A stretch of 40,000 nucleotides of DNA, taken from an uncultured Actinomycetes bacterium (GTDB lineage: Bacteria > Actinomycetota > Thermoleophilia > UBA2241). The position numbers and the translations under genes are program-made. This document shows positions 10,740-35,829 of this stretch, in pieces; position 1 is the stretch's first letter; each line of letters begins with the position of its first letter. The stretch spans positions 213,007 to 253,006 of the forward strand of contig CAVXDR010000001.1 in NCBI GenBank assembly GCA_963760655.1, written 5' to 3'. Under the pieces are notes generated by a model. It had not been told where the DNA came from. It saw only the letters and a list, made by a program, of their open reading frames with translations, and made no database searches.

Positions 10740-10752
10740 GTCACCAGGCGGC

Positions 10753-10786: not shown

Positions 10787-10811
10787 GTGCGTTCGGAGAC
10801 CTTTTCGCGCC

Positions 10812-14674: not shown

Positions 14675-14891
14675 GTTGCTTCGCCTCTTGTCGCGACGCT
14701 CGTGACTTCATGGTAGGCCGAAGCGGTTCGCGATTCCATGGGGTCGCCGTTGACTCGAGGCGGACGGCAGGCAGGGAAGGCTAGCCCGGGTGGGGGAGAA
14801 CGTCGGCTCGGCTGTGGCTCACCCGGCGCTCGCCGTTCACGAAGCCGCTCCCTTTCGCGTACCGCGCGGCGGTGATGCTAGGCTCACATGC

Positions 14892-15164: not shown

Positions 15165-15165
15165 G

Positions 15166-15752: not shown

Positions 15753-15892
15753 TCAGAAGATGACGGGGCGAACGGCGGCGGCAACGCATCGTCTGGCATA
15801 GGATGCTCGCCGGGAGCAGACTCGTCTCCCTATCCGGCCAACTCTGGCGGCCGACCGGGGTCCCTTACGCGCCGCCACACGCGGAGGTAGTC

Positions 15893-17659
15893 GTGACCAC
15901 TGCAAGTGACGCAGCCGCCCCGGCTGCGCTTTCCAAGGTCCCCACCGGCATCCGGGGCTTCGACGAGATCACCGAGGGCGGCCTGCCCAAGGGCCGCGTG
16001 TCGCTCGTTGCCGGGGCAGCCGGCAGCGGCAAGACCGTCCTGGCCATGGGCTTTCTGGTCAACGGCGCCGAGCAGTTCAACGAGCCCGGCCTCTTCGTGA
16101 GCTTCGAGGAGACCGCGCGCGACCTCGTGACCAACTTTGCCTCGCAGGGCTTCGATCTCAAGCGCCTGCAGAAGAAGGGGCTGCTTGCCCTCGACCACAT
16201 CCACGTCGAACGCAACGAGCTCGAGGAGACCGGCGACTACGACCTCGAGGGCCTCTTCGTGCGCCTCGGCGCCGAGATCGACGCCATCAAGGCCAAGCGT
16301 GTCGTGCTCGACACGATCGAGGTCCTCTTCTCGGCCTTCACCAACGAGGTGATCGTCCGCAGCGAGATGAAGCGCCTCTTCCAGTGGCTGGCCGACAAGG
16401 GCGTCACGGCGATCGTCACCGGCGAGAGCGGCGAGAAGACCATCACGCGCCACGGCCTCGAGGAGTACGTCGCCGACTTCGTCGTCGTCCTCACCCACCT
16501 GGTGAACGACGAGACGGCCACCCGGCGGCTGCGCATCGTCAAGTACCGCGGCTCGGCGCACGGCACCAACGAGTTCTCGTTTCTGATCGACCGGCGCGGC
16601 GTATCGGTGCTGCCGATCAGCTCGCTGGGCTTGCGTCACGAAGCCCCGACCGAGCGTCTCTCGAGCGGTATCGCGCGCCTCGACGAGATGCTCGGCGGCA
16701 AGGGCATCTACCGGGGCAGCAGCGTACTGGTGAGCGGCACGGCCGGCACCGGCAAGACCTCGATCGCGGCCCACTTCGTCGACGCCGCCTGCCGCCGCGG
16801 CGAGAAGGCGCTGTACTTCGCCTTCGAGGAGTCGCCGGCCCAGATCGCGCGCAACATGGCGTCGATCGGCCTCGACCTGGACCAGTGGCAGAAGAAGGGC
16901 CAGCTGCGCATCCACTCCGAGCGCCCTCAGAACACCGGCCTCGAGATGCACCTCGTGCGCATGAACCGCGAGATCGAGGAGTTCGCGCCCTCGGTCACCG
17001 TCGTCGACCCGATCACCAACCTGACGAGCATCGGCACCTTCTCCTCGATCCGCTCGACCCTGACGCGCATGATCGACGCCATGAAGTCGCGGCAGATCAC
17101 GGCGCTCTTCACCAGCCTGACCGAGGGCGGCGGCAGCCCCGAGGCGACCGACGTCGGCGTCTCCTCGCTCATGGACACCTGGATCCTGCTGCGCAACCTC
17201 GAGGCGGGCGGCGAGCGCACCCGGGGGCTCTACGTGCTCAAGGCGCGCGGCATGGCCCACTCCAACCAGGTCCGCGAGTTCGTGCTCTCTTCGGACGGTG
17301 TCGACCTGCTCGACATCTACGCCGGGGCCGAGGGCTTCCTGACCGGTGCCGCGCGCTCGGTCAAAGAAGCCGAGGAGCGCGCCGACGCCCTGAGGCGCAG
17401 TCGCGCGATCGAAGAAACCGAGCATGAGATCGCGCGAAAGCGTAAGCTCATGGCGGCCGAGCTGGAGAGGCTCAAAGCCCAGTACGAGGTCGAGATCGAG
17501 ACCCTTGAGAACGCCGTCTTTGAGCAGCGCATGAGGCAAGAGGCCGCCGCCTCAGGCAAAGCCGCGGTGCGCGCGGCTCGCGGCGACGGCGGCTCTCGTT
17601 CCGCCGGCAAGAAGTCGGCCGCGCCTCGCCGCGGCTCCGGGCCGAAGGCACGGCCGTGA
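15893..17659 (+). CDS. kaiC: Circadian clock protein KaiC homologue (double RecA/DnaB-like ATPase) with C-terminal coiled-coil extension
   Basis: TGIRGFDEITEGGLPKGRVSLVAGAAGSGKT (CI Walker A) and SGIARLDEMLGGKGIYRGSSVLVSGTAGTGKT (CII Walker A). GVSSLMDTWILL aligns with HISTITDTIILL, the phosphosite region. GTG 15893 is preceded by GGAGG. The C-terminal roughly 100 aa are heptad-like (EERADALRRSRAIEETEHEIARKRKLMAAELERLKAQYEVEIETLEN). Confidence 0.9.
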   Translation: MTTASDAAAPAALSKVPTGIRGFDEITEGGLPKGRVSLVAGAAGSGKTVLAMGFLVNGAEQFNEPGLFVSFEETARDLVTNFASQGFDLKRLQKKGLLALDHIHVERNELEETGDYDLEGLFVRLGAEIDAIKAKRVVLDTIEVLFSAFTNEVIVRSEMKRLFQWLADKGVTAIVTGESGEKTITRHGLEEYVADFVVVLTHLVNDETATRRLRIVKYRGSAHGTNEFSFLIDRRGVSVLPISSLGLRHEAPTERLSSGIARLDEMLGGKGIYRGSSVLVSGTAGTGKTSIAAHFVDAACRRGEKALYFAFEESPAQIARNMASIGLDLDQWQKKGQLRIHSERPQNTGLEMHLVRMNREIEEFAPSVTVVDPITNLTSIGTFSSIRSTLTRMIDAMKSRQITALFTSLTEGGGSPEATDVGVSSLMDTWILLRNLEAGGERTRGLYVLKARGMAHSNQVREFVLSSDGVDLLDIYAGAEGFLTGAARSVKEAEERADALRRSRAIEETEHEIARKRKLMAAELERLKAQYEVEIETLENAVFEQRMRQEAAASGKAAVRAARGDGGSRSAGKKSAAPRRGSGPKARP

Positions 17660-17961
17660 GCGCGACGCTCGATCGCGCCTCGTCGCCGGAGACCTGGCAC
17701 TTGAGGCTCTACATCGCCGGCCAGACGCCGCGCTCGATCGCCGCGCTTGCGAACCTCAACAGGATCTGCCAGGAGAACCTGGCCGGCAAGTACACCTGCC
17801 AGGTCATCGACCTGCTCGAGAACCCGCAACTGGCCAAGGGCGACCAGATCCTCGCGGTGCCCACGCTGGTCAAGGACGTGCCGCCTCCGCTGCGCAAGAT
17901 CATCGGCGACCTCTCCGACACCGAACGCGTGCTGGTCGGGCTCGACCTGCGGCCGGTCTGA
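17656..17961 (+). CDS. kaiB: KaiB (thioredoxin-like clock protein), copy 1
   Basis: LRLYIAGQTPRSIAALANLNRICQENLAGKYTCQVIDLLENPQLAKGDQILAVPTLVK...IIGDLSDTERVLVGLDL. The GTG start overlaps the kaiC stop (GTGA). Confidence 0.9.
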   Translation: MSATLDRASSPETWHLRLYIAGQTPRSIAALANLNRICQENLAGKYTCQVIDLLENPQLAKGDQILAVPTLVKDVPPPLRKIIGDLSDTERVLVGLDLRPV

Positions 17962-18314
17962 TGGCCAAGCGGGCTGCGCTTGGCGGGGAGAGGTCGCTCG
18001 AAGAGCGCCTGGCCGATGCCGCGGCCGCGCCGGGCGAGGGGCGCTACGTGCTGCGCCTCTACGTGACCGGCCAGACGCCGCGCTCGCTGCGCGCCATCCA
18101 GAACATCAGGCGCATCTGCGAGGAGCACCTGAGCGGCCGCTACGACCTCGAGGTGATCGACATCTACCAGCGACCGAGCCTCGCCAAGGGAGAGAAGATC
18201 ATCGCGGCGCCCACCCTGGTCAAGAGTCTGCCGGCGCCCATCCGGCGCTTCGTCGGCGACCTCTCCGACACCGAGAAGGTCCTTTTCGGGCTCGACCTCG
18301 TTCCCAGGGAGTAG
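17961..18314 (+). CDS. kaiB: KaiB, copy 2 (with N-terminal extension of about 25 aa)
   Basis: LRLYVTGQTPRSLRAIQNIRRICEEHLSGRYDLEVIDIYQRPSLAKGEKIIAAPTLVK...FVGDLSDTEKVLFGLDL. The ATG overlaps the stop of copy 1 (TGATG). Confidence 0.9.
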   Translation: MAKRAALGGERSLEERLADAAAAPGEGRYVLRLYVTGQTPRSLRAIQNIRRICEEHLSGRYDLEVIDIYQRPSLAKGEKIIAAPTLVKSLPAPIRRFVGDLSDTEKVLFGLDLVPRE

Positions 18315-18340
18315 GTCGGGAGCACCCCCAGGCGCACACG

Positions 18341-20506
18341 ATGGCGATGCGGATGGAAAGTCAGCAGGAACTGCTCCGCGAGATCGAGGAGCTGACCCGC
18401 AGGCTGCAGGAGGCCGAGGACACCCTCGAGGCGATCCGCAGCGGCGCCGTCGACGCGCTCGTGGTCACAAGCCCGCAGGGCGGCGAGCAGCTCTTCACCT
18501 TAGACGGCGCCGACCGCGTCTACCGCGTCTTTCTCGAGTCGGTCAGCCAGGGGGCGCTCACGCTCGACCGCGACGGCACGATCCTCTATGCGAACGCCGC
18601 CGCGGCGCGGCTCCTGCCTGTCGGCGCGGGCCTCATCGGCACGAGCCTGCGAACCTGCGTGCGCCGCGACGAGCGTGACTTCTTCGACGCCGTCTTCGAT
18701 GCCGGCAGGCGCGGCGAGACGAGCGCCGAGATCCGCCTGCGGGGCAGGACCGGGGGCCGGCCCGTCTATCTGTCGCTGCGTCTCGTGGAGGATCGCGGCG
18801 ACCAGATGATCGTGGCCGTGCTCACCGACCTCACCGACAGAAAGAAGACCGAGGAGGTGCTCAGGGCGGAGCGGCTCGCCCGCTCCATTCTCGAGCAGAC
18901 CGGCGAGGCGATCCTGGTCTGCGACCGTGACGGCACGATCGTGCGCGCCAGCCGGGCGGTCGCCAAGCTCGCCGGCCAGAACCCGGTCTTGCGGGCCTTC
19001 GCCGACGTCCTGCCTCTGCAGAGCGACGGTCGCCGGCGCTTCTCGCTTACCCGGCGGGCGAACGCCCCGCGGACGCGCGGCCTCGAGGTCCACTTCGAGC
19101 GCTCCGACGGAGCCTCGTTCGACCTGATCCTGAACGCAGACCCGCTGCGCGGCGAGGACCGTGCCCCGCTCGGCACGATCGTCACCTTGACCGACGTCAC
19201 TCGCCTCAAACAGGCCGAGCAGGCCAGGGAGGAGCTGTTGCGCGCGGTCGAGCAGGCCAACAGGGAGCTTGCCGCGATCGAGTCGCTCTCGGTCGCCGGC
19301 CTGGGGCTGGCCAACCTCGATCAGCTCGTGCACTCGATCGTCAGCCAGACGGCGCTGGCGATGGGCGCCGACCGAGCGACGCTCCTGCTGGCCAGGGGCT
19401 CCCGCCTCGAGTCGGTGGCGCGCGTGCCGCCGCTGGAGGCGAACGACCACTTCTCCCTGCCGATCGGCAGCGGCTTTGCCGGCACCATCGCCAAGCTGCG
19501 CCGCAGCCTCTTCGTGGCCGACGTGAGAGCGAGCCAGCTCGTCAAGCGCGAGACCCTCAGGCGTCAGACGGGCTCGTTGCTCGGGGCTCCCATGATCGAC
19601 CGCGACGAATGTCTCGGGGTGCTGCACGTCGGTTGGAAGGCGCGGCACGAGGCCGACGTTCGTCAGCAGCGCTTTCTCGAGATCATCGCGCAGCGCGCCG
19701 CGGCGCTCATCGCGGCCCGCATGATGACCGAGGAGCTCGACGAGCAGCGACTGGCCGCCGAGTCGGCCGCCCGCGAGAACGCGCGGCTTTTCGAGGAGCA
19801 GCAGCGCATCGCGATCGTGCTGCAGAGCAACCTGATCCACCCGATGCCGGCGGTCGCCGGCCTCGACCTGGGCGTGGTTTCGGACGCCGCCAACAAGCCC
19901 GAGCTCGTGGGCGGCGACCTGAGCGACGTCTTCGTCGTCGACGACAGCCATGTCATGGTGCTCATCGCCGACGTCGCCGGCAAGGGCATCCACGCCGCCG
20001 GCCTGACCGAGACGGTGCGCAGCACGGTGCGGGCCCTGGCCGCGATCGACCCGGCCCCGGCGTTCGTGCTGGGCAAGACGAGCGAGCTGCTGCTGCGCTT
20101 CGACCCCGACGAACCCCACGTGACGGCCTTTCTCGCGGCGATCGACCCGCGCACGGGCCACGTGGGCTACGCCAGCGCCGGCCATCCCGCGCCGCTCCAC
20201 CTGAGCGCGACCACGTGTCACCCGCTGCGCGTGCGCTTTGGTCCGCCGCTCGGTTCCTTCGTGCGGCCCTACGCGAGCAGTCACATTATGCTTTCGCTCG
20301 ACGATTACCTGGTCTTCTACACCGACGGCGTCACCGAGGCCCGCCGTGACGGCGAGTTGCTCGGCGAGCAGCGCCTGGTAGAGATCGTCTCGAGTCTGCG
20401 GGGCCGCTCCGCCCAGCAGGTCGCCGAGGCGGTGCGCACCGCCGCCCTCGAGTTTGCCGGACGGCTGCAGGACGACCTCGAGGTGGTGGCGTTGCGGCTG
20501 GCGTAG
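18341..20506 (+). CDS. Coiled-coil/PAS-PAS-GAF-PP2C (SpoIIE/RsbU-type) serine phosphatase
   Basis: ATG 18341 lies 27 nt after kaiB2. PAS cores: GALTLDRDGTILYANAAAARLL and EAILVCDRDGTIVRASRAVAKLAG. GAF: ALAMGADRATLLLARG...LGVLHVGW. PP2C motifs: GGDLSDVFVVDD, VLIADVAGKGIHAA, YASAGHPAP, LVFYTDGVTEA. The upstream part of listed ORF 17747- is off-frame through kaiB. Confidence 0.85.
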   Translation: MAMRMESQQELLREIEELTRRLQEAEDTLEAIRSGAVDALVVTSPQGGEQLFTLDGADRVYRVFLESVSQGALTLDRDGTILYANAAAARLLPVGAGLIGTSLRTCVRRDERDFFDAVFDAGRRGETSAEIRLRGRTGGRPVYLSLRLVEDRGDQMIVAVLTDLTDRKKTEEVLRAERLARSILEQTGEAILVCDRDGTIVRASRAVAKLAGQNPVLRAFADVLPLQSDGRRRFSLTRRANAPRTRGLEVHFERSDGASFDLILNADPLRGEDRAPLGTIVTLTDVTRLKQAEQAREELLRAVEQANRELAAIESLSVAGLGLANLDQLVHSIVSQTALAMGADRATLLLARGSRLESVARVPPLEANDHFSLPIGSGFAGTIAKLRRSLFVADVRASQLVKRETLRRQTGSLLGAPMIDRDECLGVLHVGWKARHEADVRQQRFLEIIAQRAAALIAARMMTEELDEQRLAAESAARENARLFEEQQRIAIVLQSNLIHPMPAVAGLDLGVVSDAANKPELVGGDLSDVFVVDDSHVMVLIADVAGKGIHAAGLTETVRSTVRALAAIDPAPAFVLGKTSELLLRFDPDEPHVTAFLAAIDPRTGHVGYASAGHPAPLHLSATTCHPLRVRFGPPLGSFVRPYASSHIMLSLDDYLVFYTDGVTEARRDGELLGEQRLVEIVSSLRGRSAQQVAEAVRTAALEFAGRLQDDLEVVALRLA

Positions 20507-23840: not shown

Positions 23841-24146
23841 TGAGCGCCTCCCTCGGCTGCTATCGGTTCCCGTCAGCCGAGCCGCCGACCCCGCCCACAG
23901 CCGCCACCGACGCAACCACACCGGGGAGCTGACCGGCGACCCTCCACACCCGTCACCCTGACGACGTCCCCCGGCAGGTAGGCGAGCCGACGCGAAGCGT
24001 GGCGAGCCGAACCCGCTAGCTCGGCACCCCCTCAGCCGGCAGCCGCGCGCCGGTCGACGATCGGGCCGGCGAGCCGTCCCCAGTCAGCCTGACCAACGAG
24101 CACTAGCCGAAGCGGCGAGCCGCTCGAAGGGCGGCGCATCACGGCG

Positions 24147-25098: not shown

Positions 25099-25130
25099 CC
25101 CCCCCACCGGTTGACGGGATAGGAGATAGG
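25099..25130. repeat. Left junction of putative transposon: direct repeat CCC-CCCCACCGGTTGAC followed by 15-bp terminal inverted repeat GGGATAGGAGATAGG
   Basis: 25102-25115 is identical and in direct orientation to 35845-35858. 25116-25130 is the exact reverse complement of 35830-35844. Confidence 0.6.
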
Positions 25131-25361
25131 CGAGAGAAAAGTGAGCTATTGCGTTGCATCGACCGACAACGGGGGCCGCCTCGCCACCGCTTCGCCTTCG
25201 GTCCGGGGTGAGGGCTCACGGGCGACGTGTCCGGGCTGGCTCCGCGCTGCGCGGCGGCTCGCCTACCTGCCGGGGTCGTCGTCGGGGTGACGGGTGAAGA
25301 GGTCGCCCTGGGTTTCCGGTGTGGTCGCCCCGGTGGCGGGGGGGAGCTTGCGTGCCCCGCT

Positions 25362-26423
25362 TCAGTCGCTCGGAATGTTCTTGGCCGCGACTCCACAGAA
25401 AGAGGGGTGAGGAGCCGTCGACTTAGCCAACGTCCAACTCGTGCCACCATCGGTCGTGGCCAAGAGCGCCATGCCGTCCGTGACGACCCAGCCGTGCTGT
25501 TTGTCGGCGAATGAGACCGCGCTCGGATCCCAACCAACAGGCAAGCGGCTGAGCGTCCACGTCTTGCCGCCGTCGGTCGTGCGATAGAGAAGGCCGCCGT
25601 TGCCCACGACCCAGCCGTCGCTCGCATTCACAAACGAGACGCTGTTGAGGCCGTCGTGTGTCCCGGACAACTGCGTGTGCCAGTGCCTGCCGCCGTCGCT
25701 TGTGGCGAGGATGAAACCCGGCTCACCACCGACAATCCAGCCGTGTCGTGCGTCGGTGAATGTCACGTCCGTCGGCAACAGGTCCTTCAAGTCGCGTTGG
25801 ACGCGCCAGTGGGCACCGCCATCGCTTGTCACCAGAATGTCGCCACTCCAGCCCACGGCCCAACCGTGTCGTGCATCGGGAAAGGCGACACCTGTAAGGT
25901 TCTCGAGGCTGCCTTCGTACTGGGTGCGCCACCTCTTGCCGCCGTCGCTGGTGGCGAGGATGATGCCCGGAATCTGCTGGCCCACATTGTCGAAGCCGAC
26001 GACCCAGGCGTGCTCGGCGTCAACTGCCGCCACGGCTACGAGGTTCTCAGCAGATGAGCTGCGCTGCGTGGTCCAAGTCACGCCGCCGTTTGTCGTGGCG
26101 AGGATCGTGCCGCCCTTGCCGACGGCCCAGCCGTGGCGGGCGTCCGCGAAGGCGACGCCGCGCAGAAGCTGGTAGGCGAGGTTTCCGCTTGCGTCCTTGT
26201 GAGCGGTGCGCCAGGTCGCGCCGCCGTTTGTGCTCGTCACAACGAGGCGCGGCATGCCGACGACCCAAACATCGGCACCGGGTCGCACGGAAAGCGGCTG
26301 ACTGGGCGTCGTCATGAGCTTCTCGAACCACGAGGCCATTTGGGGGTGCGATCCGCACGAAGAGGCGCATGCCACGACGACGAGCAAACCGGCGAGTGCC
26401 GTGAGTCGCAGGATGCGCTTCAT
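25362..26423 (-). CDS. Ycf48/Hcf136-like BNR-repeat beta-propeller lipoprotein
   Basis: Signal and lipobox: MKRILRLTALAGLLVVVACASSCG. It carries repeated blades (T/S)xDGGxxW (STNGGATW, TTNGGVTW, TSDGGKRW, TSDGGAHW, TSDGGRHW, TTDGGKTW, TTDGGTSW) interleaved with ARHGWAVG-type strands. Start is preferred at ATG 26423 (SD-like GGTGGG). Confidence 0.8.
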   Translation of the reverse strand: MKRILRLTALAGLLVVVACASSCGSHPQMASWFEKLMTTPSQPLSVRPGADVWVVGMPRLVVTSTNGGATWRTAHKDASGNLAYQLLRGVAFADARHGWAVGKGGTILATTNGGVTWTTQRSSSAENLVAVAAVDAEHAWVVGFDNVGQQIPGIILATSDGGKRWRTQYEGSLENLTGVAFPDARHGWAVGWSGDILVTSDGGAHWRVQRDLKDLLPTDVTFTDARHGWIVGGEPGFILATSDGGRHWHTQLSGTHDGLNSVSFVNASDGWVVGNGGLLYRTTDGGKTWTLSRLPVGWDPSAVSFADKQHGWVVTDGMALLATTDGGTSWTLAKSTAPHPSFCGVAAKNIPSD

Positions 26424-26605
26424 GTCCCACCATATCGGCATTCGTGGTAATCAGCTCAACCAGGGTGCTCGTACCATCATGCTCCCGGCCCGTGGCGAGC
26501 AGGTCCGCCGGGCTCCCCCCGGTGTGGTCGCTCCCGGTGTCGGCGGTGGGCAGGGGGTCGGCGGGTCGACTGGCGCGGGACGTACGAGGACTGGAGTTGG
26601 AGTTC

Positions 26606-26708
26606 CACTGGCGCATTTTCGGCCAGCGCCGCTCGCCAATTACCGACTCGCCGCGCTCGGCCGTCAACCCCGCGAACGCGATACTCAATTACCTCTACGC
26701 ATTACTTG
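26606..26708 (+). pseudogene. Isolated 103-bp fragment of a second, diverged Cas1-family gene
   Basis: It encodes HWRIFGQRRSPITDSPRSAVNPANAILNYLYALL, colinear with aa 32-65 of the Cas1-like ORF at 28029. By manual alignment there are about 15 mismatches in 103 nt. It ends exactly at the IS3 terminus. Confidence 0.6.
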
Positions 26709-26760
26709 TGGAGTTGGAGTTGACCCGCTTTCGTTGACACCCTGAAAGTGGACACCAGCG

Positions 26761-27063
26761 GTGTCCGAGAAGGGAGTCAGCGTGGCGTACACGCCGGAGT
26801 TTCGGAGCGAGGCGGTCAGGCTGTACCGCGTCGGCGGACGTGGGGTCAAGGTGACGGCGCAGCAGATCAGCGTCGCGCCCGGCACCTTGCGCAAGTGGGT
26901 CCACCAGGCCGAGATCGACGAGGGTATCGAGGACGGCCTGACCAGCGAGGAGCGTGCCGAGCTGCGGCGCCTCAGGCGTGAGGTGAGGATCTTAGAAGAG
27001 GAGAAGGAGATCCTGCGCAAGGCAGCGCTTTTCTTCGCCCGGGAGACCGATCGTCGGCGATGA
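26761..27063 (+). CDS. IS3-family transposase OrfA (HTH + leucine zipper)
   Basis: [13 protein letters not shown]...[16 protein letters not shown]...[33 protein letters not shown] is the typical IS3/IS911 OrfA. Confidence 0.85.
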
Positions 27064-27950
27064 GGTTCCGGCTGATCGATGAAGAGAAGTCATGCCACTC
27101 GATCTCCCGCCTGGCCCGCGTGCTCGGCGTGACCGCCGCGGGCTACCACGCCTGGAGGAAGCGTCCACCCTGCGCGCGCCGGCTTGCCGATGCACGCCTC
27201 AAGGAGCGCATCGCCTGCCACTTCGCGGCCAGTCAGGGCACCTACGGCTCGCCGCGCCTGCTCGACGATCTGGCCGACGAGGGCATCCGCGTCTCGCGCA
27301 AACGCATCGCTCGTCTCATGGGCGAGATGGGCATCGCCGGTGTCTCGGGACGCGAGGGCAGGCGCCGGCGCCGCAAGGCCACCGCGCCCGAGAGCGCGCC
27401 GGCGAGAGACCTCGTGCGTCGCGACTTCACCGCCGGCGAACCCAACCAGCTCTGGTTTGCCGACATCACCTACGTGCCGACCTGGGAGGGCTGGCTGTTT
27501 CTGGCCGTGGTCATGGACGCCTGCACCAAGCGCATCGTCGGTTGGTCGATGCGCGACGACCTGAGGGCCGACATCGTCATCGACGCGCTGGGCATGGGAA
27601 CGACCATGCGCCGGCCGCAGGCCGGCCTTGTCCATCACTCCGATCGCGGCGCCCAGTATCGCTCACTGGCCTTCGGCAAGACGCTGCGCGACTGCGGCAT
27701 CCTGGCGTCGATGGGCGAGACCGGCGTTCCTCATGACAACGCCGTGACCGAGTCGGTGATGGCGACCATCAAGAAGGAGTGCGTGCACCGCCACCGCTTC
27801 AAGACCAGAGACGAGGCGCGGTTCGCGATCTTCCGCTACATCGAGGGCTTCTACAACCCGCACCGGCGGCACTCGTCACTGGGCAACTTGTCGCCGGCGG
27901 AGTTCGAGCGGAGACTGGAGCAGCAGCGGCCTGCCGCGGCCGCGTGCTAG
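27060..27950 (+). CDS. IS3-family transposase OrfB (DDE/rve integrase core)
   Basis: LWFADITYV (D), [11 protein letters not shown] (D) and [17 protein letters not shown] (E), followed by [20 protein letters not shown]. It is in the -1 frame relative to orfA, with an ATGA overlap. Confidence 0.9.
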
Positions 27951-28028
27951 TTCGCAGGTATCAACGGAACTGGGGCAACTCCATCACGGGAAATCGCGGA
28001 AAATGCGCCGTCAATTCCCGGAATACTA

Positions 28029-29057
28029 ATGTGCGAGGCACAAGGCGCGCTGGCTTATTGGGGAGCCTGGAAAAACGTTTCCCTGCGTTTTGCCAGAAAA
28101 GACAATAAATCAATTCCTGAGCACTGGCGCATTTTCGGACAGCGCCGCTCGCCGATAACCGACTCACCACGCTCGGCCGCCAATCCCGCGAATGCCATGC
28201 TCAATTATCTGTACGCGCTGCTTGAGGCAGAGGCTCGTTTTGCCTGTCTCGCCTGCGGGCTCGATCCGGGGCTCGGCGTATTTCACGCCGACCAGAAATC
28301 ACGCGACTCGCTAGCACTCGATCTGATGGAGGCGGTCAGGCCGCAAGTCGACGCCTATCTGCTCGACCAGATCGAAACGCGGACTTTCAGCGCCAAGGAT
28401 TTTATCGAGACGAGAAAGGGCGTCTGTCGAGTGCTCGCGCCGCTCACGCATACGCTCGCCGAGACAACACCGCGATGGGCAAAGGCCGTTGGCCCGGTGG
28501 TCGAGAACGTCACCGCGATGCTCGCTTCGGACGGTAGTCTGCAACTGAGCTTGCCGACGCCGCTCACTCAATCAAACCGCAGTTTGGGGCGCGGCAGGGT
28601 CCGTCGTAATCCAAAGCGGACTGAGTCGTCGAAGGCGAAGCTCGCGCCGACCTGCGCCACCTGCGGTGGACCGCTGCCGAGTGTGGATCGCATGGTCTGC
28701 GACGACTGCCTGCCCGGTGAACGGGAGCGCCACAATGTCGGGTTCGTCGCAGCGGGTGCGGCCGGGCTGGCGAAGATGCAGGCGGAAGGGCGCAACTGGA
28801 TGGACAGCGAGCAGTCCAGGCGCAAGCTGGGGCAGTCGAACGCAAAGCGGCAGCGCGAGAGAATCGAGTGGGAGCTCACACACGAGAAGCCCGACCCCGA
28901 GGTCTTCACGCGCGAGATCCTGCCAATGCTTCAGACGGTGACGCTGCCGCAGATGAGGGCGGCGACGGGGCTCTCGACAACGATGTGCGCGAGGATTCGG
29001 CGGGGGTACGTGCCACACCCGAGGCATTGGAACAAGCTTCGTCGGCTTGAGGTCTAG
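28029..29057 (+). CDS. Cas1-family integrase-like protein lacking the N-terminal domain (truncated by the IS3 element), with C-terminal Zn-ribbon and HTH-like extension
   Basis: Cas1 catalytic-domain motifs: ILMCEAQGALAYW (Glu), NPANAMLNYLYALLEAEA, GLDPGLGVFHAD (His), SLALDLMEAVRPQVD (Asp/Glu). In-frame homology continues upstream to the IS boundary at 27987. The C-terminus has CATCGG...CDDC and LPQMRAATGLSTTMCARIRRGYVPHPRHW. No cas2, other cas genes or CRISPR array are in the window. Confidence 0.75.
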   Translation: MCEAQGALAYWGAWKNVSLRFARKDNKSIPEHWRIFGQRRSPITDSPRSAANPANAMLNYLYALLEAEARFACLACGLDPGLGVFHADQKSRDSLALDLMEAVRPQVDAYLLDQIETRTFSAKDFIETRKGVCRVLAPLTHTLAETTPRWAKAVGPVVENVTAMLASDGSLQLSLPTPLTQSNRSLGRGRVRRNPKRTESSKAKLAPTCATCGGPLPSVDRMVCDDCLPGERERHNVGFVAAGAAGLAKMQAEGRNWMDSEQSRRKLGQSNAKRQRERIEWELTHEKPDPEVFTREILPMLQTVTLPQMRAATGLSTTMCARIRRGYVPHPRHWNKLRRLEV

Positions 29058-29069
29058 AGCACTTCCGGC

Positions 29070-29897
29070 TCAGGCCAGCCGCAGGACGACCACCTGCATG
29101 TCGTCTCTCAGGCGGCCGTCGGCGAACTCGGATGCGGCGTCCCGCACGCCATCGGTGACCTCCTGCGCGGAGCAGCCACGTAGACCCTCGACGATCTCGA
29201 GCAGCCGCCGCTCTCCGAGCAGCTCGCCGTCGCGGCGTGCTTCGGTGACGCCGTCGGTATAGAGCACGAGGCAGTCTTCGGGCGTCAGCATCGTGTGGGA
29301 CTCTTTGTAGGAGTGCGAGAAGGTGCCAAGCGGCGGACCGTAGACCACAGCGAGGGAGTCGCACGTATTCGCGCCGAGGTGGACTGGCGCGGGATGACCG
29401 GCGCTCGCGTAGCTCAGATGGCCGGTGTGCGGGTCGAGCACGGCGCAAAAGGCGGTCACGTGGGCCTCGTCGGGATCGTAGCCCAGGAGCAGCTCGCTGG
29501 TCTTCCCCAAGATGAAGGACGGCGACGGGTCGATCGCGGCCAGTGCCCGCACCGTGCTGCGCACGGTCTCGGTCAGGCCGGCGGCGCGCACGCCCTTGCC
29601 GGCAACATCGCCGATCAGCAGGACGACGTGCGACTCGTCGCCGACGAAGACGTCGCTGAAGTCGCCGCCCACGAGCTCGGGCTCGAAGGCGGTCTTTGTC
29701 ACCATGCCCAGCTCGAGGCCGGCGACCGCGGGCAGCGCGTGAAGGAAGTTCTCCTGCAGCGTTGTGGCGATGCGCTCCTGCTCTTCGTAGAGGCGGGCGT
29801 TGGCAAGGGCCGTCGAGATCGAGGCGGCAAGCTTGCCGGCGAACTCGACGATCTCCGGCGGGAAGGCGACGGCCGCCTCGTGGTGGTTGAAGAAGAT
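29070..29897 (-). pseudogene. 3' segment (end of GAF + PP2C phosphatase domain) of the giant sensor gene split by the IS66-family insertion
   Basis: It reads FFNHHEAAVAFPPEIVEFAGKLAASISTALANARLYEEQ... then PP2C motifs GGDFSDVFVGDE, LLIGDVAGKGVRAA, YASAGHPAP and LVLYTDGVTEA. It joins in frame to 31460-35296 once the IS and one TSD copy are removed. Confidence 0.85.
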
Positions 29898-31451
29898 GTA
29901 AGCGTTCAGTTGGTCCGGCCATGCAGCTGAGCAAGAGGCCGAGGGCCATGAGGCAGGCACCTGCTTCTGCGCAGCGAACCCTCGGCCATGGAGCGCGCCG
30001 AGGCGGAGGCGATCTACGACCAGGGACGCGAGGCGGTGGTCGCGGCGCTCCTCGCGCTCTCGGCTCAGGTCGCCGCCCTGGAGGCGCGCCTTGCCAAGCA
30101 GGAGGAGCGCATCGCCGAGCTTGAGCGACAGCTCAGGCGCAACTCGCAGAACTCCTCGCTGCCACCGAGCGCCGATCCGCCTGGGGCGCCGGCCCGCAGG
30201 CGGCCACCATCCTCAGGCGGCAGACGCGGCGCCCAGCACGGTCACAAGGGCCACGGCCGACACCTGGCCCCGATCGAGGCCGTCGACGAGCTCATCGATC
30301 ACTGGCCCGAGCACTGCGCCTGCGGCCACCGCTTCACCCCGGAAGAGCGTCACCCCGTTGGCAACCCGGCCCGATGGCAGGTCGCCGAGCTGCCCGCGAT
30401 CGCCATCACCTTAAGCGAGCACCGCCTCCATCGCCTGCGCTGCCCCGCCTGCGGTGCGATCACCCGCGCAAAGCTGCCCGCGGATGTGCCAGAGAGCGCC
30501 TTCGGCCCGCGCCTGTGCGCGGCGGTCGCCACCCTGGCCGTGCGCAACCGCGTCTCCCGGCGCGATGCGGTCGAGCTGGCCGGCGAGCTGTTTGGCGCCC
30601 GCCTCTGCGCCGGCACGGTCGATGCCATCCTGCGGCGCGCGGCGGCGGCGCTTGCCAGGCCCTACGAGGAGCTGCTGCACGAGACCCGTGCCTCGCCCGC
30701 CGTCAACGTCGATGAGACCGGCTGGCGCCTGCGCGGCGGGCGGCGCACCCTCTGGGGCGCTCTCACGCTTCGGACCGCGGTCTTTCGCATCGCCGCCGAC
30801 CGCCACGAGCGCGAGGCCGTGGCCCTGCTCGGCGAGCGCTTCGCAGGGATCACCTGCAGCGATCGCTGGTGGGCCTACAACTACCTGGATGTGGAACGGC
30901 GCCAGCTCTGTTGGGCGCACCTGACCCGCGACTTTCGGGCACACAGCGAGGGCCTCGGCCTGCAGAGGCAGTTCGGCGAGGCTGGCCTTGCGATCAGCGA
31001 GCGTCTCTTCGCCGCCTGGGGCGACTACCGGCTCGACGGCGACCGCGAACGCCTCGCGGCGCGCATCGGGCCCCTCAAGGAGGAGCTGCGGGCGCTGCTT
31101 GAGGAAGCGGCGCACAAGAGCCCCCGCAACCGCCAGCACCGCACCTTCGCCAAGAACCTGCTCAAGTGCTGGCCGGCGCTGTGGACCTTCGCCAGCGTGC
31201 CCGGCGTGGAGCCCACCAACAACCAGGCCGAGCGCGGGTTGCGTGGCGCGGTCATCTACCGCAAGCTCTCGCTGGGCAGCCAGTCCGAGGACGGCGAGCG
31301 TACCATCGAGCGGCTGCTCTCGGCCTCGGTGACCTGCCGCCTGCAGAAGCGCTCGCTCTTTGCCTACCTCAGCGAGGTCCTGGCCGCCAGCGCCCGCGGC
31401 GATCCCGTCCCCTCACTGGTCTGACCGAGTGCACACCGACTGAACGCTTAC
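29898..31451 (+). mobile_element. IS66-family insertion sequence, single-ORF (ISBst12-like) type, 1554 bp
   Basis: The inverted termini are GTAAGCGTTCAGTTGGT (29898-) and the reverse complement of ACCGACTGAACGCTTAC (-31451). They are flanked by a perfect 8-bp direct repeat AAGAAGAT (29890-29897 and 31452-31459). Confidence 0.9.
29988..31424 (+). CDS. IS66-family transposase (TnpC-like)
   Basis: The N-terminal leucine zipper is LSAQVAALEARLAKQEERIAELERQL. The Zn-finger region is HCACGHRF...RLRCPACG. It also has DETGWR, CWAHLTRDF and NNQAERGLRGAVIYRKLSLGSQSEDG motifs. Confidence 0.9.
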   Translation: MERAEAEAIYDQGREAVVAALLALSAQVAALEARLAKQEERIAELERQLRRNSQNSSLPPSADPPGAPARRRPPSSGGRRGAQHGHKGHGRHLAPIEAVDELIDHWPEHCACGHRFTPEERHPVGNPARWQVAELPAIAITLSEHRLHRLRCPACGAITRAKLPADVPESAFGPRLCAAVATLAVRNRVSRRDAVELAGELFGARLCAGTVDAILRRAAAALARPYEELLHETRASPAVNVDETGWRLRGGRRTLWGALTLRTAVFRIAADRHEREAVALLGERFAGITCSDRWWAYNYLDVERRQLCWAHLTRDFRAHSEGLGLQRQFGEAGLAISERLFAAWGDYRLDGDRERLAARIGPLKEELRALLEEAAHKSPRNRQHRTFAKNLLKCWPALWTFASVPGVEPTNNQAERGLRGAVIYRKLSLGSQSEDGERTIERLLSASVTCRLQKRSLFAYLSEVLAASARGDPVPSLV

Positions 31452-34400
31452 AAGAAGATGACGCCGAGCACCTCTTCTCTGACGATCAAGGGGATGCACA
31501 GCACGGAGCGCACCCCGAAGCGACGCTGCACCTCGGGGAGGCAGCGCGGGTCGCTTTCGCAGTCGTCGATGGCGATCGGCCGGCGCTCGGTCACGGCCAT
31601 GACCATGAAGGGCGCCTCGTCGGTGCGCACGCATTCGTGGATCAGCCCGGGGACCTCGGGATAGCCGTACTCGGCCACCCAGTCGTCGCCGTGGCGCAGC
31701 GCGACCATGGCGCTGTCGGATCCGACCGCGGCGACCGCATGCTCGACGACCGTCTGCATGATCTCGCGGCTATCGAGCGTCGAGTTGATCAGGCCGTTCA
31801 TCTCGTTTAAGACCTCGGTCAGCTCGGCCGCCGCGGCCTCACGCTCGGCGCGCTCGTGCAGCTCATCACGTTGGGTCGACAGCTCCTCACCGGCCGCCTG
31901 CAGCTCCTCGGTCTGCAGCTGGAGTCTCCGAGCGAGCTCCTCGACGCGCGCTTGCTCGGCGAGTTGGGCCTCGCGAGCGGCGTCGGCGCGAACCAGGGCG
32001 ACCGCGGCCGCGCGACGACGCTCGGCCTGCTCGCTTAGGGTCTTGGCGAGAAAGCCGGAGAGCAGGCCAGCCGCCACCCAGACCGCCGTCGATATCAGCG
32101 TCGTTGGTACGGTGGACAGGCTGCCCCGCCCGCCCACCGTCAGGTAGAACGCCCCGCCACCGGCGATGGCCACGAGCGCACCGAAAGGCGGGCCCGCCAG
32201 GGCGCCGGCGATGACTGAGAACAGCGCGATCATGGAGCCTGGCAGGCCCAAGACGTGGCGCGGGCTATGTGCGCTGTTCAGCGCCAGGAGGATCGCACTC
32301 TGGATCGCGATCGCACCGGCGAGCACGCGCCAACGATGGCCTCGGAAGCGGTCCACAAGCCGAGTGGTGCGGCTCCCCGGCAGGTGCTCGTCAAGCCGTG
32401 CGGCCTCGGTCTCGCGCTCGAGCAGCGCGCGCTCGGCTTGCTTACGGGCGCTGATGTCGGTCACAAACGAGCGGTAGTGCAGGAGTGTGCCGTCCTCGTC
32501 GAAGATCGGCTGCACGAGCAGCTCGATCGGCACGCGGCTGCCGTCCTTGCGCAGGTACTCCTTCTCGTAGGACACAGGGTGGCGTTCGCTCACCGCCCGC
32601 GCGAGGATCGTTGCCTCGGTCGCGCGCCACTCGGGCGGCGTCAGGTCGGTCGACCAAGTGAGCGCTCTCTCGTGAAGCTCGGCGCCGCTGTAGCCCGTCA
32701 GCCGCTCGAAGGCTTCGTTGAACAGAAGGAGACGACCATCGGGCGCTCCCATCCCGAAGGGCATCGCGGACTTCTGCAGCACATCGGCCAGGAGATGGGC
32801 GTTCTCCTCGCTCTCGCGCAGCGCCTCTTCGGCGCGCTTACGCTCGGTGATGTCGCGGTTGGACTCAAGGACGCGCTCGACTCCGTCTTCGCCCACCACG
32901 AGCTGAAGCCGCGATGCTACGGTGACTTGGCGGCCGTCCTTGGCGCGGTGGACAAGCTCTCCCTCCCAGCTCTCCCGTGTGTGGAGGGCGTCTTCGATTG
33001 TGGCCCACGGTTGCGGGAAGGCGGTGCGCAACAGGTCGCGAGTGACTCGGCCGATCGCCTCTTCTACACCGTAGCCGTAGAGCTGCTCGGCGCCACGATT
33101 CCAAGACTCGATCGCACCGCCGAGACGCCAGACGATGATGGGCTCGAAGGACAGGTCGAGCAGCTCGGCTTGGCGCTTGGCTTCCTGCTCGGCCAAGGTG
33201 CGCTCAGTGGTGTCGATGAACACCGTCGCGAAGCGTCCCGGCTCGGTCTGGTAGGCGCTCACCTCAAACCAGCGCCCCAGCGGTCCGAACTGCGACTCGA
33301 AGTGAGCCGGCTCGCCGGTCAGGGCCACCTTGCCGTAGATCTCAAACACCGGGTCGTCGGCGGCATCGGGGAAGAGCTCAAGCGTGGTGTGCCCCAGGAT
33401 GTCTGCGGCCTTTAAGCCCGTGTGGCGCTCGAAGGCGGGGTTGACCGAAAGGTAGCGCAGATCGTAGGGCTTGCCGTTCTCGTCGCAGATGATCTCGTCG
33501 AGGGCGAAGCCCTCGCTCATCGTGTCGAATAGGGTGCGGTAGCTCCCCTCACTCTCAAGCAGCGCCTCCTCGGCGCGTTTGAGGTCCGTGACGTCGTTGC
33601 CGATCGCCAGGATCTCAGCAACCTTGCCTTGGTCGTCAAGGATCGCCCGATTGGTCCAGTTCAGCCAGAGGCGACGGCCGTCCCGGCAGATGTTCTCGTT
33701 GGTGTTGTGCTCGTAGCGGTCGGGGTGCTTGACGATGTCGCTGACGAGGCCGGTCGGGTCAGTCCCGTCCGACTCCTGCTCTGGAACCAGGATGTTCACC
33801 GACTTGCCGACGGCCTCCTTGGCACTCCAGCCGAAGAGCCTCTGGGCGTACCCGTTGATGAAGGTGATCCTGCCGTCACAAGACCACCGCACGATCGCGC
33901 TGTTGGCGTTCTCCACGAGCTCACGGTAGCGACTCTCGCTACGCCGCAGGGCCTCCTCTGCTGCCTTGCGCTCGGTGACGTCGCTGTGCATGATCAGGTT
34001 CGCGATGTGGTTGCCTTGGGCGTCGAGGAGGGGAGACGCACTGTAGCGCGACCACAGAACCGCGCCGTCCTTGCGGCGCAGCTTGACCTCGCGGCGCAGC
34101 ACCTGGCCCTCATGAAGTTCGGCCCGTGCGTCGTCGGTTTCGGGCTTCCAACCTTCAAAGACGAGGTCGGAACCGGACATGCCGAGCAGCTCCTCGACTG
34201 AGTAGCCCAGCATGTCGGCCATGCGCTGGTTGGCAAACTGAAAGGCCCCCTCTGGCGCGCCGATGACGATGCCCTCGGTCGAGTTCTCGACCATGGCGCG
34301 GTACTTGGCCTCGCTCGCCCGGAGAGCCGCAAAGTACTGCTCGCGCTCCTCCTCGATGCGCTTACGCTCGCTGATCTCGTGGCCGAAGACGCTGACGCCT

Positions 34401-35296
34401 GAAGAGGTCGGGTAGAAGCGCGCCTCGATCCAGTCGCCTGAGATCTCAGTCTGGTACTCGAGCATCGAGAAGCGTCCCAGCTCGATCGCCTCGCGGAGGG
34501 CCTTACCCTCGACCGAGTCGCCCAGGGTCGGGGCGAACTCCCAGACGGACCTACCGATGAGCTCCTCGCGACTGCTACGCAGGAGGCGCAGGGCAGCCTC
34601 GTTGAGGTGTTGGTAGCGGTACTCCCAATCGATCACCATGACGAACTCGTCGACCTCGTCGAGCAAAGCTTGCCCGCGGGACTCGCGCTCGCCGGCAGCA
34701 CCGCCGCCATAGGTCTCGAAGGGGATGCCCTCCGGAATGGAGGGCTTACAGCGCGCTTCGGCGTGTCGCGTCATGCGCACCTCGAGGCCACCGTCAACGC
34801 TCAGTTTCAACGAGTCCATGAGCTTGGCGACGATGAACAGGCCGCGGCCGTGGTCGGACAGGACATCGGGCACAGAGTCACGATCGAAGCTCGTTACGTC
34901 GAAGCCTCGGCCGTGGTCTTTGACCACGGCGAGCAGGTCGCCGTTGACGAAGCGCAGCGAGATCTCGATGTCGTGCTCGCTGCCGCTGTGACGGATGGCG
35001 TTGGTCGCGGCCTCCTCGACGCAAAGCACGACGTCGTCGATGACCTCGGGCTCGGTGCAGTACTGGCGCAGGTAGTCACGAATGCGGTCGCGGGCGCGCA
35101 GCAGGTGGGAGGGCTCGGACGGGACGCGGAAGAGCAGGCGCGGTGGCGCGATCTGAGGCTTAACGTCGCTCTGCGACAACTGACTCCCCCGCACGGGCTT
35201 GCTTCGAGGGGAACGAATGGCGCTCAGTGTACGCCGAAGGTACAGGAAGTTGCGACCGTTCCAGGCCTCGAACAACCTTTGTGATGAGTCGCACAA
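31448..35296 (-). CDS. 5' segment of giant sensor: RsbW/SpoIIAB-like Ser kinase (HATPase_c) + 6 PAS + about 4 TM + coiled coil + GAF (interrupted; stop supplied by the IS66 end)
   Basis: The N-terminus has VLCVEEAATNAIRHSG...VKDHGRGFD...DHGRGLFIVAKLMD. Six PAS cores each end in a D(V/I)TERK-type linker. The TM block is RWRVLAGAIAIQSAILLAL...AVWVAAGLLSGFLA. The GAF runs MQTVVEHAVAAVGSDSAMVAL...VLGVIF. The terminal TAA lies inside the IS terminus GCTTAC. The true start may be the TTG at 35179, preceded by GGGGGAG. Confidence 0.85.
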   Translation of the reverse strand: MCDSSQRLFEAWNGRNFLYLRRTLSAIRSPRSKPVRGSQLSQSDVKPQIAPPRLLFRVPSEPSHLLRARDRIRDYLRQYCTEPEVIDDVVLCVEEAATNAIRHSGSEHDIEISLRFVNGDLLAVVKDHGRGFDVTSFDRDSVPDVLSDHGRGLFIVAKLMDSLKLSVDGGLEVRMTRHAEARCKPSIPEGIPFETYGGGAAGERESRGQALLDEVDEFVMVIDWEYRYQHLNEAALRLLRSSREELIGRSVWEFAPTLGDSVEGKALREAIELGRFSMLEYQTEISGDWIEARFYPTSSGVSVFGHEISERKRIEEEREQYFAALRASEAKYRAMVENSTEGIVIGAPEGAFQFANQRMADMLGYSVEELLGMSGSDLVFEGWKPETDDARAELHEGQVLRREVKLRRKDGAVLWSRYSASPLLDAQGNHIANLIMHSDVTERKAAEEALRRSESRYRELVENANSAIVRWSCDGRITFINGYAQRLFGWSAKEAVGKSVNILVPEQESDGTDPTGLVSDIVKHPDRYEHNTNENICRDGRRLWLNWTNRAILDDQGKVAEILAIGNDVTDLKRAEEALLESEGSYRTLFDTMSEGFALDEIICDENGKPYDLRYLSVNPAFERHTGLKAADILGHTTLELFPDAADDPVFEIYGKVALTGEPAHFESQFGPLGRWFEVSAYQTEPGRFATVFIDTTERTLAEQEAKRQAELLDLSFEPIIVWRLGGAIESWNRGAEQLYGYGVEEAIGRVTRDLLRTAFPQPWATIEDALHTRESWEGELVHRAKDGRQVTVASRLQLVVGEDGVERVLESNRDITERKRAEEALRESEENAHLLADVLQKSAMPFGMGAPDGRLLLFNEAFERLTGYSGAELHERALTWSTDLTPPEWRATEATILARAVSERHPVSYEKEYLRKDGSRVPIELLVQPIFDEDGTLLHYRSFVTDISARKQAERALLERETEAARLDEHLPGSRTTRLVDRFRGHRWRVLAGAIAIQSAILLALNSAHSPRHVLGLPGSMIALFSVIAGALAGPPFGALVAIAGGGAFYLTVGGRGSLSTVPTTLISTAVWVAAGLLSGFLAKTLSEQAERRRAAAVALVRADAAREAQLAEQARVEELARRLQLQTEELQAAGEELSTQRDELHERAEREAAAAELTEVLNEMNGLINSTLDSREIMQTVVEHAVAAVGSDSAMVALRHGDDWVAEYGYPEVPGLIHECVRTDEAPFMVMAVTERRPIAIDDCESDPRCLPEVQRRFGVRSVLCIPLIVREEVLGVIFL

Positions 35297-35349: not shown

Positions 35350-35724
35350 ATGGAGTACGAGGTGGCAGACAGTCCGCAGTTCCAGGTCGAGCTCAGTAGG
35401 CCCAGCGCCGACGTCGCCGTCGTTGAGCTGAAGGGCGAGGTCGATCTCTACACCTCGCCTCAGTTCAAGGACGCTCTCTTGCAGGCCATCGGCGAAGGGA
35501 CCGCGCGCGTCGTTGTTGACTTAAGCCAGGTTCGCTTCATCGACTCGACAGGGCTCGGCGTCGTGGTCGGCGGCATCAAGGCGGTCACGGCTCGTGGCGG
35601 CACCCTCGACCTCGTCTGCCCCGAGGGGCGCATCAGGCGCACTTTCGAGATTACGGGTCTGGACCGAATCGTACACATCCACCACTCGCGCAGCGACGCG
35701 CTGGCGGCTACCTCGGGGGACTAG
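35350..35724 (+). CDS. STAS-domain anti-sigma-factor antagonist (SpoIIAA/RsbV-like)
   Basis: VAVVELKGEVDLYTSPQFKDALLQAI...VVVDLSQVRFIDSTGLGVVVGGIK...GTLDLVCPEGRIRRTFEITGLDRI carries the conserved DSTGLG phospho-Ser motif. An alternative start is GTG 35362. It is divergent from the giant kinase/phosphatase gene. Confidence 0.85.
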   Translation: MEYEVADSPQFQVELSRPSADVAVVELKGEVDLYTSPQFKDALLQAIGEGTARVVVDLSQVRFIDSTGLGVVVGGIKAVTARGGTLDLVCPEGRIRRTFEITGLDRIVHIHHSRSDALAATSGD

Positions 35725-35829
35725 CTCAGCAGTCCTTGGCAGCGCGCGGAGCTTTCCGGGTGTCGTTCTGAAGGTGCCAACGACCTTCCTTCTTCCGGTC
35801 TTGTCACGCTAGGGCGCGTTTCGCCGGCC

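Follow-up and report, generated by a model that had tools for sequence, protein, structure and literature searches.

Why should a cas1-like gene be found with no cas2, no CRISPR array and no other cas gene beside it? The question is raised by a 40,000-nucleotide (nt) stretch of DNA from an uncultured Actinomycetes bacterium (hereafter the window), in which an earlier note, made from the sequence alone, described a stand-alone Cas1-family gene with a zinc-ribbon and helix-turn-helix (HTH) extension at its C-terminus. We find that the gene does not stand alone. It lies inside an element with casposon termini and a 14-bp target-site duplication (TSD), and its full-length relatives are the integrases (casposases) of casposons that encode a family B DNA polymerase (PolB). 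The window element is very probably a degenerate family 3 casposon, and the cas1 open reading frame (ORF) the remnant of its integrase, as opposed to an intact new type of Cas1-solo.

The ORF (28029..29057 on the + strand) begins with an ATG at 28029, remains open for 1029 nt and encodes 342 amino acids (aa). It was recovered as Cas1 by the hidden Markov models of both Pfam (Cas_Cas1, E=5.5e-24) and NCBIfam (TIGR00287, 79.7 bits against a cut-off of 71.7), in agreement with its original assignment to this family; the subtype-specific Cas1 models of NCBIfam all scored far under their cut-offs. The Pfam match covers only profile positions 155-267 of 283, which make up the C-terminal catalytic domain. 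Within it, the ORF retains a complete set of the Cas1 Glu, His and Asp/Glu candidates, namely E3 (28035-28037), H86 (28284-28286), and D98 and E101 (28320-28331). In an alignment of 50 family members, all four positions show no variation (E172, H255, D267 and E270 in the full-length homologue P0003). The catalytic candidates picked out in the earlier note are confirmed, and the NxxLNYxYALL motif that it listed is present as NAMLNYLYALL. When the frame is read upstream of the ATG, Cas1 homology (..REIAENAPSIPGILMCEAQGA..) extends back to 27987, the first base past the right end of an IS3-family insertion sequence (IS) that stops at 27986. The N-terminal β-domain is missing: homology in the window begins at about residue 153 of 511, at the IS3 junction (27986/27987), exactly where the cut had been placed.

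Past the Pfam match there is a C-terminal tail of ~210 aa, longer than the ~170 aa first proposed, that is conserved throughout in full-length homologues. The two features that had been recognized in it, the ribbon and the HTH-like segment, are both conserved. The zinc ribbon (CxxC..CxxC, 28653-28709) has four cysteines that are invariant in the family, and the C-terminal segment ATGLS..G..PH..HW is invariant in the same 50-member alignment; the HTH-like helices are at ~28896-29045. A model of the tail alone had a predicted local distance difference test (pLDDT) score of 82.3. A fold search with this model gave no significant match (best E ~1), and the weak top matches, which extended over about 50 residues, were nearly all to HTH domains of the XRE/Cro type. 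The predicted fold is consistent with an HTH, but is not proof of one.

A protein search returned thousands of relatives. Among the 120 best matches listed, full-length homologues are ~510-520 aa long and cover ~91-100% of the query, including the tail. Homologues of the ORF are named “CRISPR-associated endonuclease Cas1” in JGI. A profile of 50 homologues was compared with solved structures, and the casposase of M. mazei (6opm) was the best match (E 4.5e-36), narrowly above the Cas1 of A. fulgidus. An AlphaFold (AF2) model of full-length P0003 (pLDDT 83.7) contains the β-domain and the catalytic domain, together with a small ribbon, a pair of long helices and, at the end, a bundle of four helices, and 6opm was again the top match when the model was compared with the PDB by Foldseek (E 4.4e-18).

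Reference sequences taken from the alignment published as a supplement to Krupovic et al. 2014 were compared with the window Cas1 domain by blastp. The five references of family 3 took the top places, followed by family 2, family 1 and the CRISPR Cas1 proteins. Identity to the window domain was 55% for AceAut-C1, 46% for S. spinosa, 42% for StrAlb-C1 and 39-40% for NitAL212-C1 and HenMar-C1, all of family 3, compared to 33-35% for family 2 casposases and 25-30% for CRISPR Cas1 proteins. In a neighbour-joining tree, the window sequence, its family and AceAut-C1 formed a group with a bootstrap value of 82/100, and family 3 had a value of 78/100. The reference blastp, the tree, and the profile and fold searches agree that the protein is casposase-like rather than an adaptation Cas1, as had been suspected. 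Judged by these comparisons, the ORF is the 3' two-thirds of a family 3 casposase (integrase) gene. Its tail, which had been singled out as unusual, is already described for the lineage, since the fusion of Cas1 with a zinc-binding domain and an HTH in AceAut-C1, the closest published relative, was reported in 2014 (PMC4046053).

There were 263 relatives in the 185,579 species-representative genomes scanned. We examined the surroundings of full-length relatives in two metagenomic loci (L001 and L002) and 80 loci from species-representative genomes, all of them metagenome-assembled genomes (MAGs); the locus L083 shares its sample with L001. The hosts include Actinomycetota (Thermoleophilia, Gaiellaceae, Solirubrobacteraceae and Acidimicrobiales) as well as Chloroflexota, Acidobacteriota, Gemmatimonadota, Eremiobacterota, Dormibacterota, Myxococcota and Deltaproteobacteria, and the closest relatives are found in Thermoleophilia/Actinomycetes MAGs. 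A PolB homologue of ~1000 aa, divergently oriented, lies upstream of cas1, within 10 kb in 59 of the 82 loci, and is present in 47 of the 55 loci that have at least 8 kb of upstream flank. The PolB alignment displays the ExoI-III motifs (DxE, NxxxFD and YxxxD) and polymerase motifs A, B and C (DFxSMYPT, KxxANAxSYG and CDTDS), and 22 of 34 members match Pfam DNA_pol_B_2. The PolB_CDTDS group, which is named for its motif, includes the PolB of the A. boonei casposon (PMC7544198). We file the polymerases provisionally with this group, because their motif C is CDTDS and the accompanying Cas1 belongs to family 3. Profile matches to the PDB were too weak to decide the type, and searching the PDB with one sequence gave no match. 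A polymerase of the protein-primed, family 1-like type, considered because only PF03175 was matched, was set aside on the strength of motif C and the family 3 Cas1.

Two smaller genes lie between PolB and cas1. One encodes a 144-aa protein with the motif CxxC..HH..N..CxNCH, the profile of which matches the HNH domain of McrA (6ghc, E 2.9e-5); the other encodes a 162-aa HTH protein. They were found in 27 and 42, respectively, of the 55 loci with sufficient upstream flank, and Pfam searches with single sequences of either gave nothing useful. The PolB+cas1 modules are surrounded by inverted repeats 12-20 kb apart. In 12 elements (L068, L018, L028, L060, L081, L005, L036, L055, L065, L067, L040 and L002), these terminal inverted repeats (TIRs) are abutted by TSDs of 12-14 bp. 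A casposon is defined by Cas1, PolB, HNH and HTH genes within TIRs, with a TSD of ~14 bp (PMC4046053, PMC4779613); the modules of the relatives match this definition, and the relatives are thus casposons. Their insertions are intergenic, and tandem insertions at a single target occur. Nine of the 13 readable TSDs (those of L002, L005, L018, L055, L060, L065, L067, L081 and the window) start with GTCAA or end with TTGA(C), whichever way they are oriented with respect to cas1. One edge of the target thus seems to be chosen by sequence, with a GTCAA/TTGAC motif. The neighbourhoods of the homologues thus yielded PolB, TIRs and TSDs, while cas2 and arrays were not found beside most of them.

The window contains two copies, and no more, of GGGATAGGRGATAGG, the motif with which the closest elements terminate; inverted with respect to each other, they lie at 25116-25130 and 35830-35844. 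In L005 and L001, the PolB+Cas1 elements end in unaltered copies of the 15-mer, and in L002, L004 and L083 in variants with 1-2 substitutions. Related termini occur in ~10 loci besides these; 35802-35852 is 84% identical to the terminus region of L083 (15398-15448). Both copies are abutted on the outside by the same 14 bp. The element delimited in this way measures 10,729 bp and is inserted between 25115 and 25116, with flanks ..ACGTACCC on the left and CGCCGCCC.. on the right. A single insertion predicts the unoccupied site ..CCGTCTACGTACCC-CCCCACCGGTTGAC-CGCCGCCCTCCGCC. The sequence to the left of the TSD (..CCGTCTACGTACCC) bears only a weak resemblance to a terminus. No homologue of PolB (with the L001 and L002 proteins as queries), of the HNH protein or of the HTH protein was found in the 40-kb window by tblastn. 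Since PolB is missing from the window, the element is a defective derivative, and not an autonomous casposon. There is no tRNA gene in the window. The termini and TSDs (25102-25130 and 35830-35858) were overlooked in the earlier note, as was a second, 106-nt cas1 fragment, described below.

Table 1. Features of the casposon-derived element, with positions in the window. TIR and TSD as in the text.
Feature	Position	Strand	Details
Left TSD, 14 bp, CCCCACCGGTTGAC	25102..25115	.	Abuts left terminus; identical to right copy
Left casposon terminus (TIR), GGGATAGGAGATAGG	25116..25130	+	Exact 15-mer; inverted copy at 35830-35844
Subterminal casposon repeat, ~100 nt	25245..25339	-	Further copies at 26505-26586 (-) and 23878-24009 (+, outside the element)
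Cargo: BNR/Ycf48-like β-propeller lipoprotein gene, 359 aa	25362..26441	-	Pfam PSII_BNR, 2.4e-39
Copy of IS3 left end, 13 nt, TGGAGTTGGAGTT	26592..26604	+	Identical to 26709-26721
Fragment of second casposase gene copy, 106 nt	26606..26711	+	cas1 nt ~601-706; ..HWRIFGQRRSPITDSPRSAVNPANAILNYLYALL
IS3-family insertion sequence	26707..27986	+	Ends TGTGGAGTTGG... and ...CAACTCCATCA
5'-truncated family 3 casposase gene	27987..29057	+	~Residues 153-511 of full-length homologues
Cargo: HATPase_c_2-PAS(xN)-GAF-SpoIIE sensor phosphatase gene	29070..35296	-	Split by IS66 into 31448-35296 and 29070-29960; Pfam
IS66-family element	29898..31451	+	Single 478-aa DDE_Tnp_IS66 transposase, Pfam 6.6e-33; inverted repeat I21; ends GTAAGCGTTCAGTTGG
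Cargo: STAS-domain protein gene (anti-sigma-factor-antagonist type)	35350..35724	+	Pfam STAS, 1.4e-23
Right casposon terminus, inverted, GGGATAGGAGATAGG	35830..35844	-	Exact 15-mer
Right TSD, 14 bp, CCCCACCGGTTGAC	35845..35858	.	Abuts right terminus

The IS3 element, which matches Pfam HTH_Tnp_1, HTH_21, rve and rve_3, has the overlapping orfA (26761-27063, HTH_Tnp_1) and orfB (27060-27950, rve) and the TG...CA-type ends (TGTGG... and ...ATCA) of its family. Its flanks differ (ctt and cgg), leaving it without a 3-bp TSD, which fits a later rearrangement. On its left side lies the 106-nt fragment of a second casposase gene copy, which is 85% identical to 28122-28227 in the truncated gene, forming a direct repeat (D2), and 83% identical to L001 10601-10706. 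A TSD of the IS3 element was considered as an explanation for this fragment, and was rejected on account of its length (106 nt), its 85% identity and its overlap with another part of the gene. Homology to L001 stops at 26591, and the 13-nt TGGAGTTGGAGTT follows at once, ahead of the fragment, so that IS3-end sequence is found at both edges of the fragment. Because the two cas1 pieces overlap (nt 601-706 versus 465 to the end), differ by 15% and are joined by an IS3 element that has no TSD, they would derive from different casposon copies. We infer that these were joined by recombination at IS3 copies or by an IS3-mediated deletion, to which the 13-nt remnant at the other edge of the fragment also points.

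The truncated gene shows no sign of decay in its sequence. It has no stop codons, and deviates at three of 100 highly conserved alignment columns, compared to a family mean of 3.1. Since neither stops nor surplus changes in conserved columns have accumulated, the gene was probably truncated recently. The GC content of 27990-28130 is 51.1%, against a window mean of 70.8%, which places it in the lowest 0.1% of 141-nt windows and bears out the earlier remark that this region is AT-rich.

The remaining contents of the element are cargo, repeats and a second insertion sequence. By blastn, the subterminal repeat, which measures ~100-130 nt when its copies are taken together, is 82-87% identical to L001 13520-13672 and 1205-1296, L002 14155-14295 and L083 15594-15697, all of which are near casposon ends. 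The copy outside the element may be the trace of an older neighbouring insertion. A 109-nt inverted repeat in L001 (1188-1296 and 13544-13652), at one point considered to be the casposon TIR, was superseded when the true right terminus was located at 14844, and is a subterminal or internal repeat. The BNR protein has a lipoprotein-type signal sequence. Over 25849-26591, the window matches the left portion of the casposon-bearing region of L001, which has a full-length PolB ORF, with 96.6% identity. BNR genes are also present near casposon ends in L001 (1-593 and 15047-16294), L002 (668-2990 and 12529-13434) and L003, and look like habitual cargo of the sub-lineage to which the window belongs. 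At L001 14830-16359, a BNR segment (14845-16344) lies between two outward-facing casposon termini, with the 14-mer GTCAACCGCGGGGC on each side; the same 14-mer is a target in both L001 and L083. The sensor phosphatase gene on the other side of cas1 is broken into pieces of 1282 aa and 296 aa by the IS66 element, which has a perfect 8-bp TSD (AAGAAGAT, 29890-29897 and 31452-31459); the upstream piece ends within the GAF domain, and the downstream piece contains the SpoIIE domain. Outside the casposon, at 15803-20506, there is a KaiC-family ATPase gene followed by another PAS-GAF-SpoIIE phosphatase gene, and sensor phosphatases of this type are multi-copy in the genome.

Defective elements were also seen elsewhere. 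Eight loci have no PolB in spite of at least 8 kb of upstream flank (L020, L039, L049, L050, L054, L069, L075 and L077), and at least four of these (L020, L049, L069 and L077) also have a cas1 match that is cut short at the N- or C-terminus, so that derivatives like that in the window seem to be common. In L083, right and left casposon termini face each other at 15426-15469 and 9356-9392, with exactly 14 nt between them (GTCAACCGCGGGGC and CCGCACAGGTTGAC, respectively). These look like tandem insertions sharing one target copy, in a repeat-spacer-like arrangement that recalls the tandem casposons reported in Methanosarcina. The same locus contains a 1612-nt inverted duplication (9391-11002 and 18122-19733; 92% identical), the arms of which flank an ABC-transporter operon. 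Each arm carries ~540 nt from the left end of a casposon and, after it, a cas1 gene that is cut at residue ~146, and a third, tail-only cas1 fragment (3591-4142) adjoins an IS21 element. Clearly, genomes of the window lineage, exemplified by L083, hold many casposon copies and derivatives of them.

Taken together with the literature and the related loci, these data suggest the following history. An intact casposon is a self-synthesising transposon, in which the Cas1-type integrase joins the TIRs to a target, generating a TSD of 14-15 bp, and the element's own family B DNA polymerase copies the casposon. One such casposon integrated at 25115/25116, leaving both of its ends and the 14-bp duplication that survive today. 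Its core, consisting of the PolB, HNH nuclease and HTH protein genes and the first ~150 codons of cas1, was then lost, presumably through an IS3-associated deletion or recombination, and IS66 later split the cargo phosphatase gene.

What remains of the integrase is unlikely to work as one. The M. mazei casposase forms dimers via its N-terminal β-domains and tetramer contacts through residues 39-67, and its HTH is essential (PMC6977970). The window protein, which begins two residues before the catalytic Glu and has no β-domain, should therefore not assemble an integration complex, and by this analogy is most likely dead as an integrase. If so, the 10.7-kb element would be non-autonomous; its intact termini would allow, at most, mobilisation in trans, by an intact casposon located elsewhere in the same genome. 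A role in trans is also conceivable for the protein itself, which might have been retained, in its β-domain-less form, to bind the ends of casposons or the GTCAAC-type target and to modulate casposition. The many casposon copies, tandem insertions and deletion derivatives in these genomes make such a role plausible, though we consider it unlikely.

Several observations weigh against our interpretation of the element as a degenerate family 3 casposon. An undecayed ORF would equally be expected of a functional truncated protein under selection. The TIRs in the window are perfect over 15 nt only, with patchy similarity further in, and none of the other casposons examined was seen to carry the PAS-SpoIIE and STAS cargo. 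Independent insertions in related genomes share a similar target (GTCAACCG..GGG), and the identical TSD is consequently strong, but not absolute, proof of a single integration. A 30-nt junction pattern representing the empty site had no match in metagenome contigs. Lastly, the typing of the polymerase as family 2/3 draws on motif C and on weak profile matches, PF03175 being the only Pfam match, below or near threshold.

We considered the possibility that the truncated protein was kept for a function, either as a repressor of transposition that binds ends or targets, or as a domesticated DNA-binding or nuclease protein. Truncated transposases repress transposition in other systems, and the intact 1029-nt ORF, the lack of excess change at conserved positions and the retention of all catalytic and zinc-ligand residues are what would be expected of such a protein. 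Moreover, two cas1 copies in L083 are truncated near the same residue (~146) and were gene-called as proteins of 347 and 351 aa. However, these copies are the arms of the single 1612-nt inverted duplication, 92% identical to each other, and thus represent one truncation event that was copied, rather than independent convergence. The window copy is 80% identical to them, no closer than it is to full-length genes, and its break is set by the end of IS3. Other short database entries begin at an internal Met of disrupted genes. We consider a retained protein quite unlikely. Alternatively, the two termini could stem from separate insertions at paralogous targets, with recombination or IS rearrangement trapping the chromosomal PAS-SpoIIE and STAS genes between two half-elements. 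This would account for cargo that is unshared with other casposons, for the divergence of the terminal regions past 15 nt and for the different closest relatives of the left flank (96.6% identical to L001) and the cas1 remnant (80%). In addition, the genes that flank the L001 element are found inverted, 10-15 kb away, in the window, and one 14-mer target recurs in L001 and L083. Against this, the two window TSDs are identical at 14 of 14 positions, whereas the TSDs of other insertions in the lineage differ at three or more positions; a deletion or inversion between independent insertions would yield non-matching flanks, and the target motif has no other copy in the window. We therefore find an origin from two half-elements very unlikely.

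The remaining alternative is that the gene is the relic of a CRISPR-Cas adaptation module from which cas2, the array and the effector genes have disappeared. The generic Cas1 models were indeed matched above threshold, and one related locus has a possible array 8 kb away. But the closest relatives are casposases and not CRISPR Cas1 proteins, they adjoin PolB, HNH and HTH genes inside elements bounded by TIRs and TSDs, and the subtype-specific Cas1 models scored far below their cut-offs. The neighbours of cas1 in the window are IS3 and the SpoIIE gene, and not cas2. A Pfam scan of 24 window ORFs, in which the coverage of small ORFs was incomplete, recovered no cas family, and a simple scan for regularly spaced repeated k-mers detected no array in the window, only a three-copy repeat with a ~54-nt period at 11140-11248, which we interpret as a short tandem repeat. 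The lack of a CRISPR context stated in the earlier note thus stands. We rejected a decayed CRISPR locus because these scans revealed neither an array nor cas genes and because the protein clusters with casposases; the probability of such a locus is close to nil. The same k-mer scan found CRISPR-like repeats in one of 83 loci, L018, where a possible array (19181-19605) of a repeat with GTCGTCCCCACGCGCGTGGGG and a ~61-nt period lies ~8 kb downstream of the casposase.

The preferred interpretation, a degenerate family 3 casposon, turns an apparent orphan Cas1 into a dead transposon gene, for which the annotation “CRISPR-associated endonuclease Cas1” would imply a CRISPR system that is absent. It does not establish a new category. 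Casposons of the AceAut-C1 type are common among soil phyla, including Actinomycetota, Chloroflexota and Acidobacteriota. The clade to which the window element belongs has sharp ends, 14-bp duplications, a GTCAA/TTGAC motif at the target edge and tandem insertions one 14-bp target copy apart, and thus provides many natural before-and-after cases for the choice of target by a Cas1 integrase with a zinc-ribbon and HTH tail. Only ~8 bacterial casposons were described in the literature searched. The wider AceAut-C1-type clade deserves a survey. A larger claim, that the window affords a glimpse of a large family 3 casposon clade in soil bacteria that is barely described in that literature, with perfect TIRs and TSDs that point to recent mobility and with adaptive-looking cargo, is one we advance as a long shot.

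Compared to known systems, the window protein shares the fold and catalytic residues of the C-terminal domain with CRISPR Cas1. CRISPR Cas1 lacks a C-terminal DNA-binding tail, however, and the window gene is in a transposon context and only 25-30% identical. Like the Cas1-solo proteins of group 1 (Makarova 2013; Krupovic 2014), the window Cas1 occurs outside CRISPR loci, but the set of catalytic residues is incomplete in group 1 (PMC4046053), and complete in the window protein and its family. The family 2 casposase of M. mazei (6opm; Hickman et al. 2020) is the best match among solved structures by both profile and fold, and has the same E/H/E-type active site and a C-terminal HTH on which its activity depends. 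Identity is only 23-33%. The enzyme has neither a zinc ribbon nor a long helical linker to join its catalytic domain to the HTH, and targets a tRNA gene (PMC6977970), and the window protein lacks the N-terminal domain through which it dimerizes. The closest likeness is to the published family 3 casposons (PMC4046053, PMC4779613). AceAut-C1 has the same fusion of Cas1, zinc-binding domain and HTH, and the 14-bp TSD in the window compares with 14 bp for NitAL212-C1 and 15 bp for AceAut-C1. The TIRs are shorter, perfect over 15 bp as opposed to 36-602 bp in the published members, and the window copy, which carries two insertion sequences, is missing PolB, HNH, HTH and the 5' third of cas1. The cargo is also different: a sensor phosphatase of the partner-switching type, accompanied by a STAS protein, and BNR lipoproteins. 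The hosts of the clade are high-GC soil lineages that are barely represented among the ~8 published family 3 elements.

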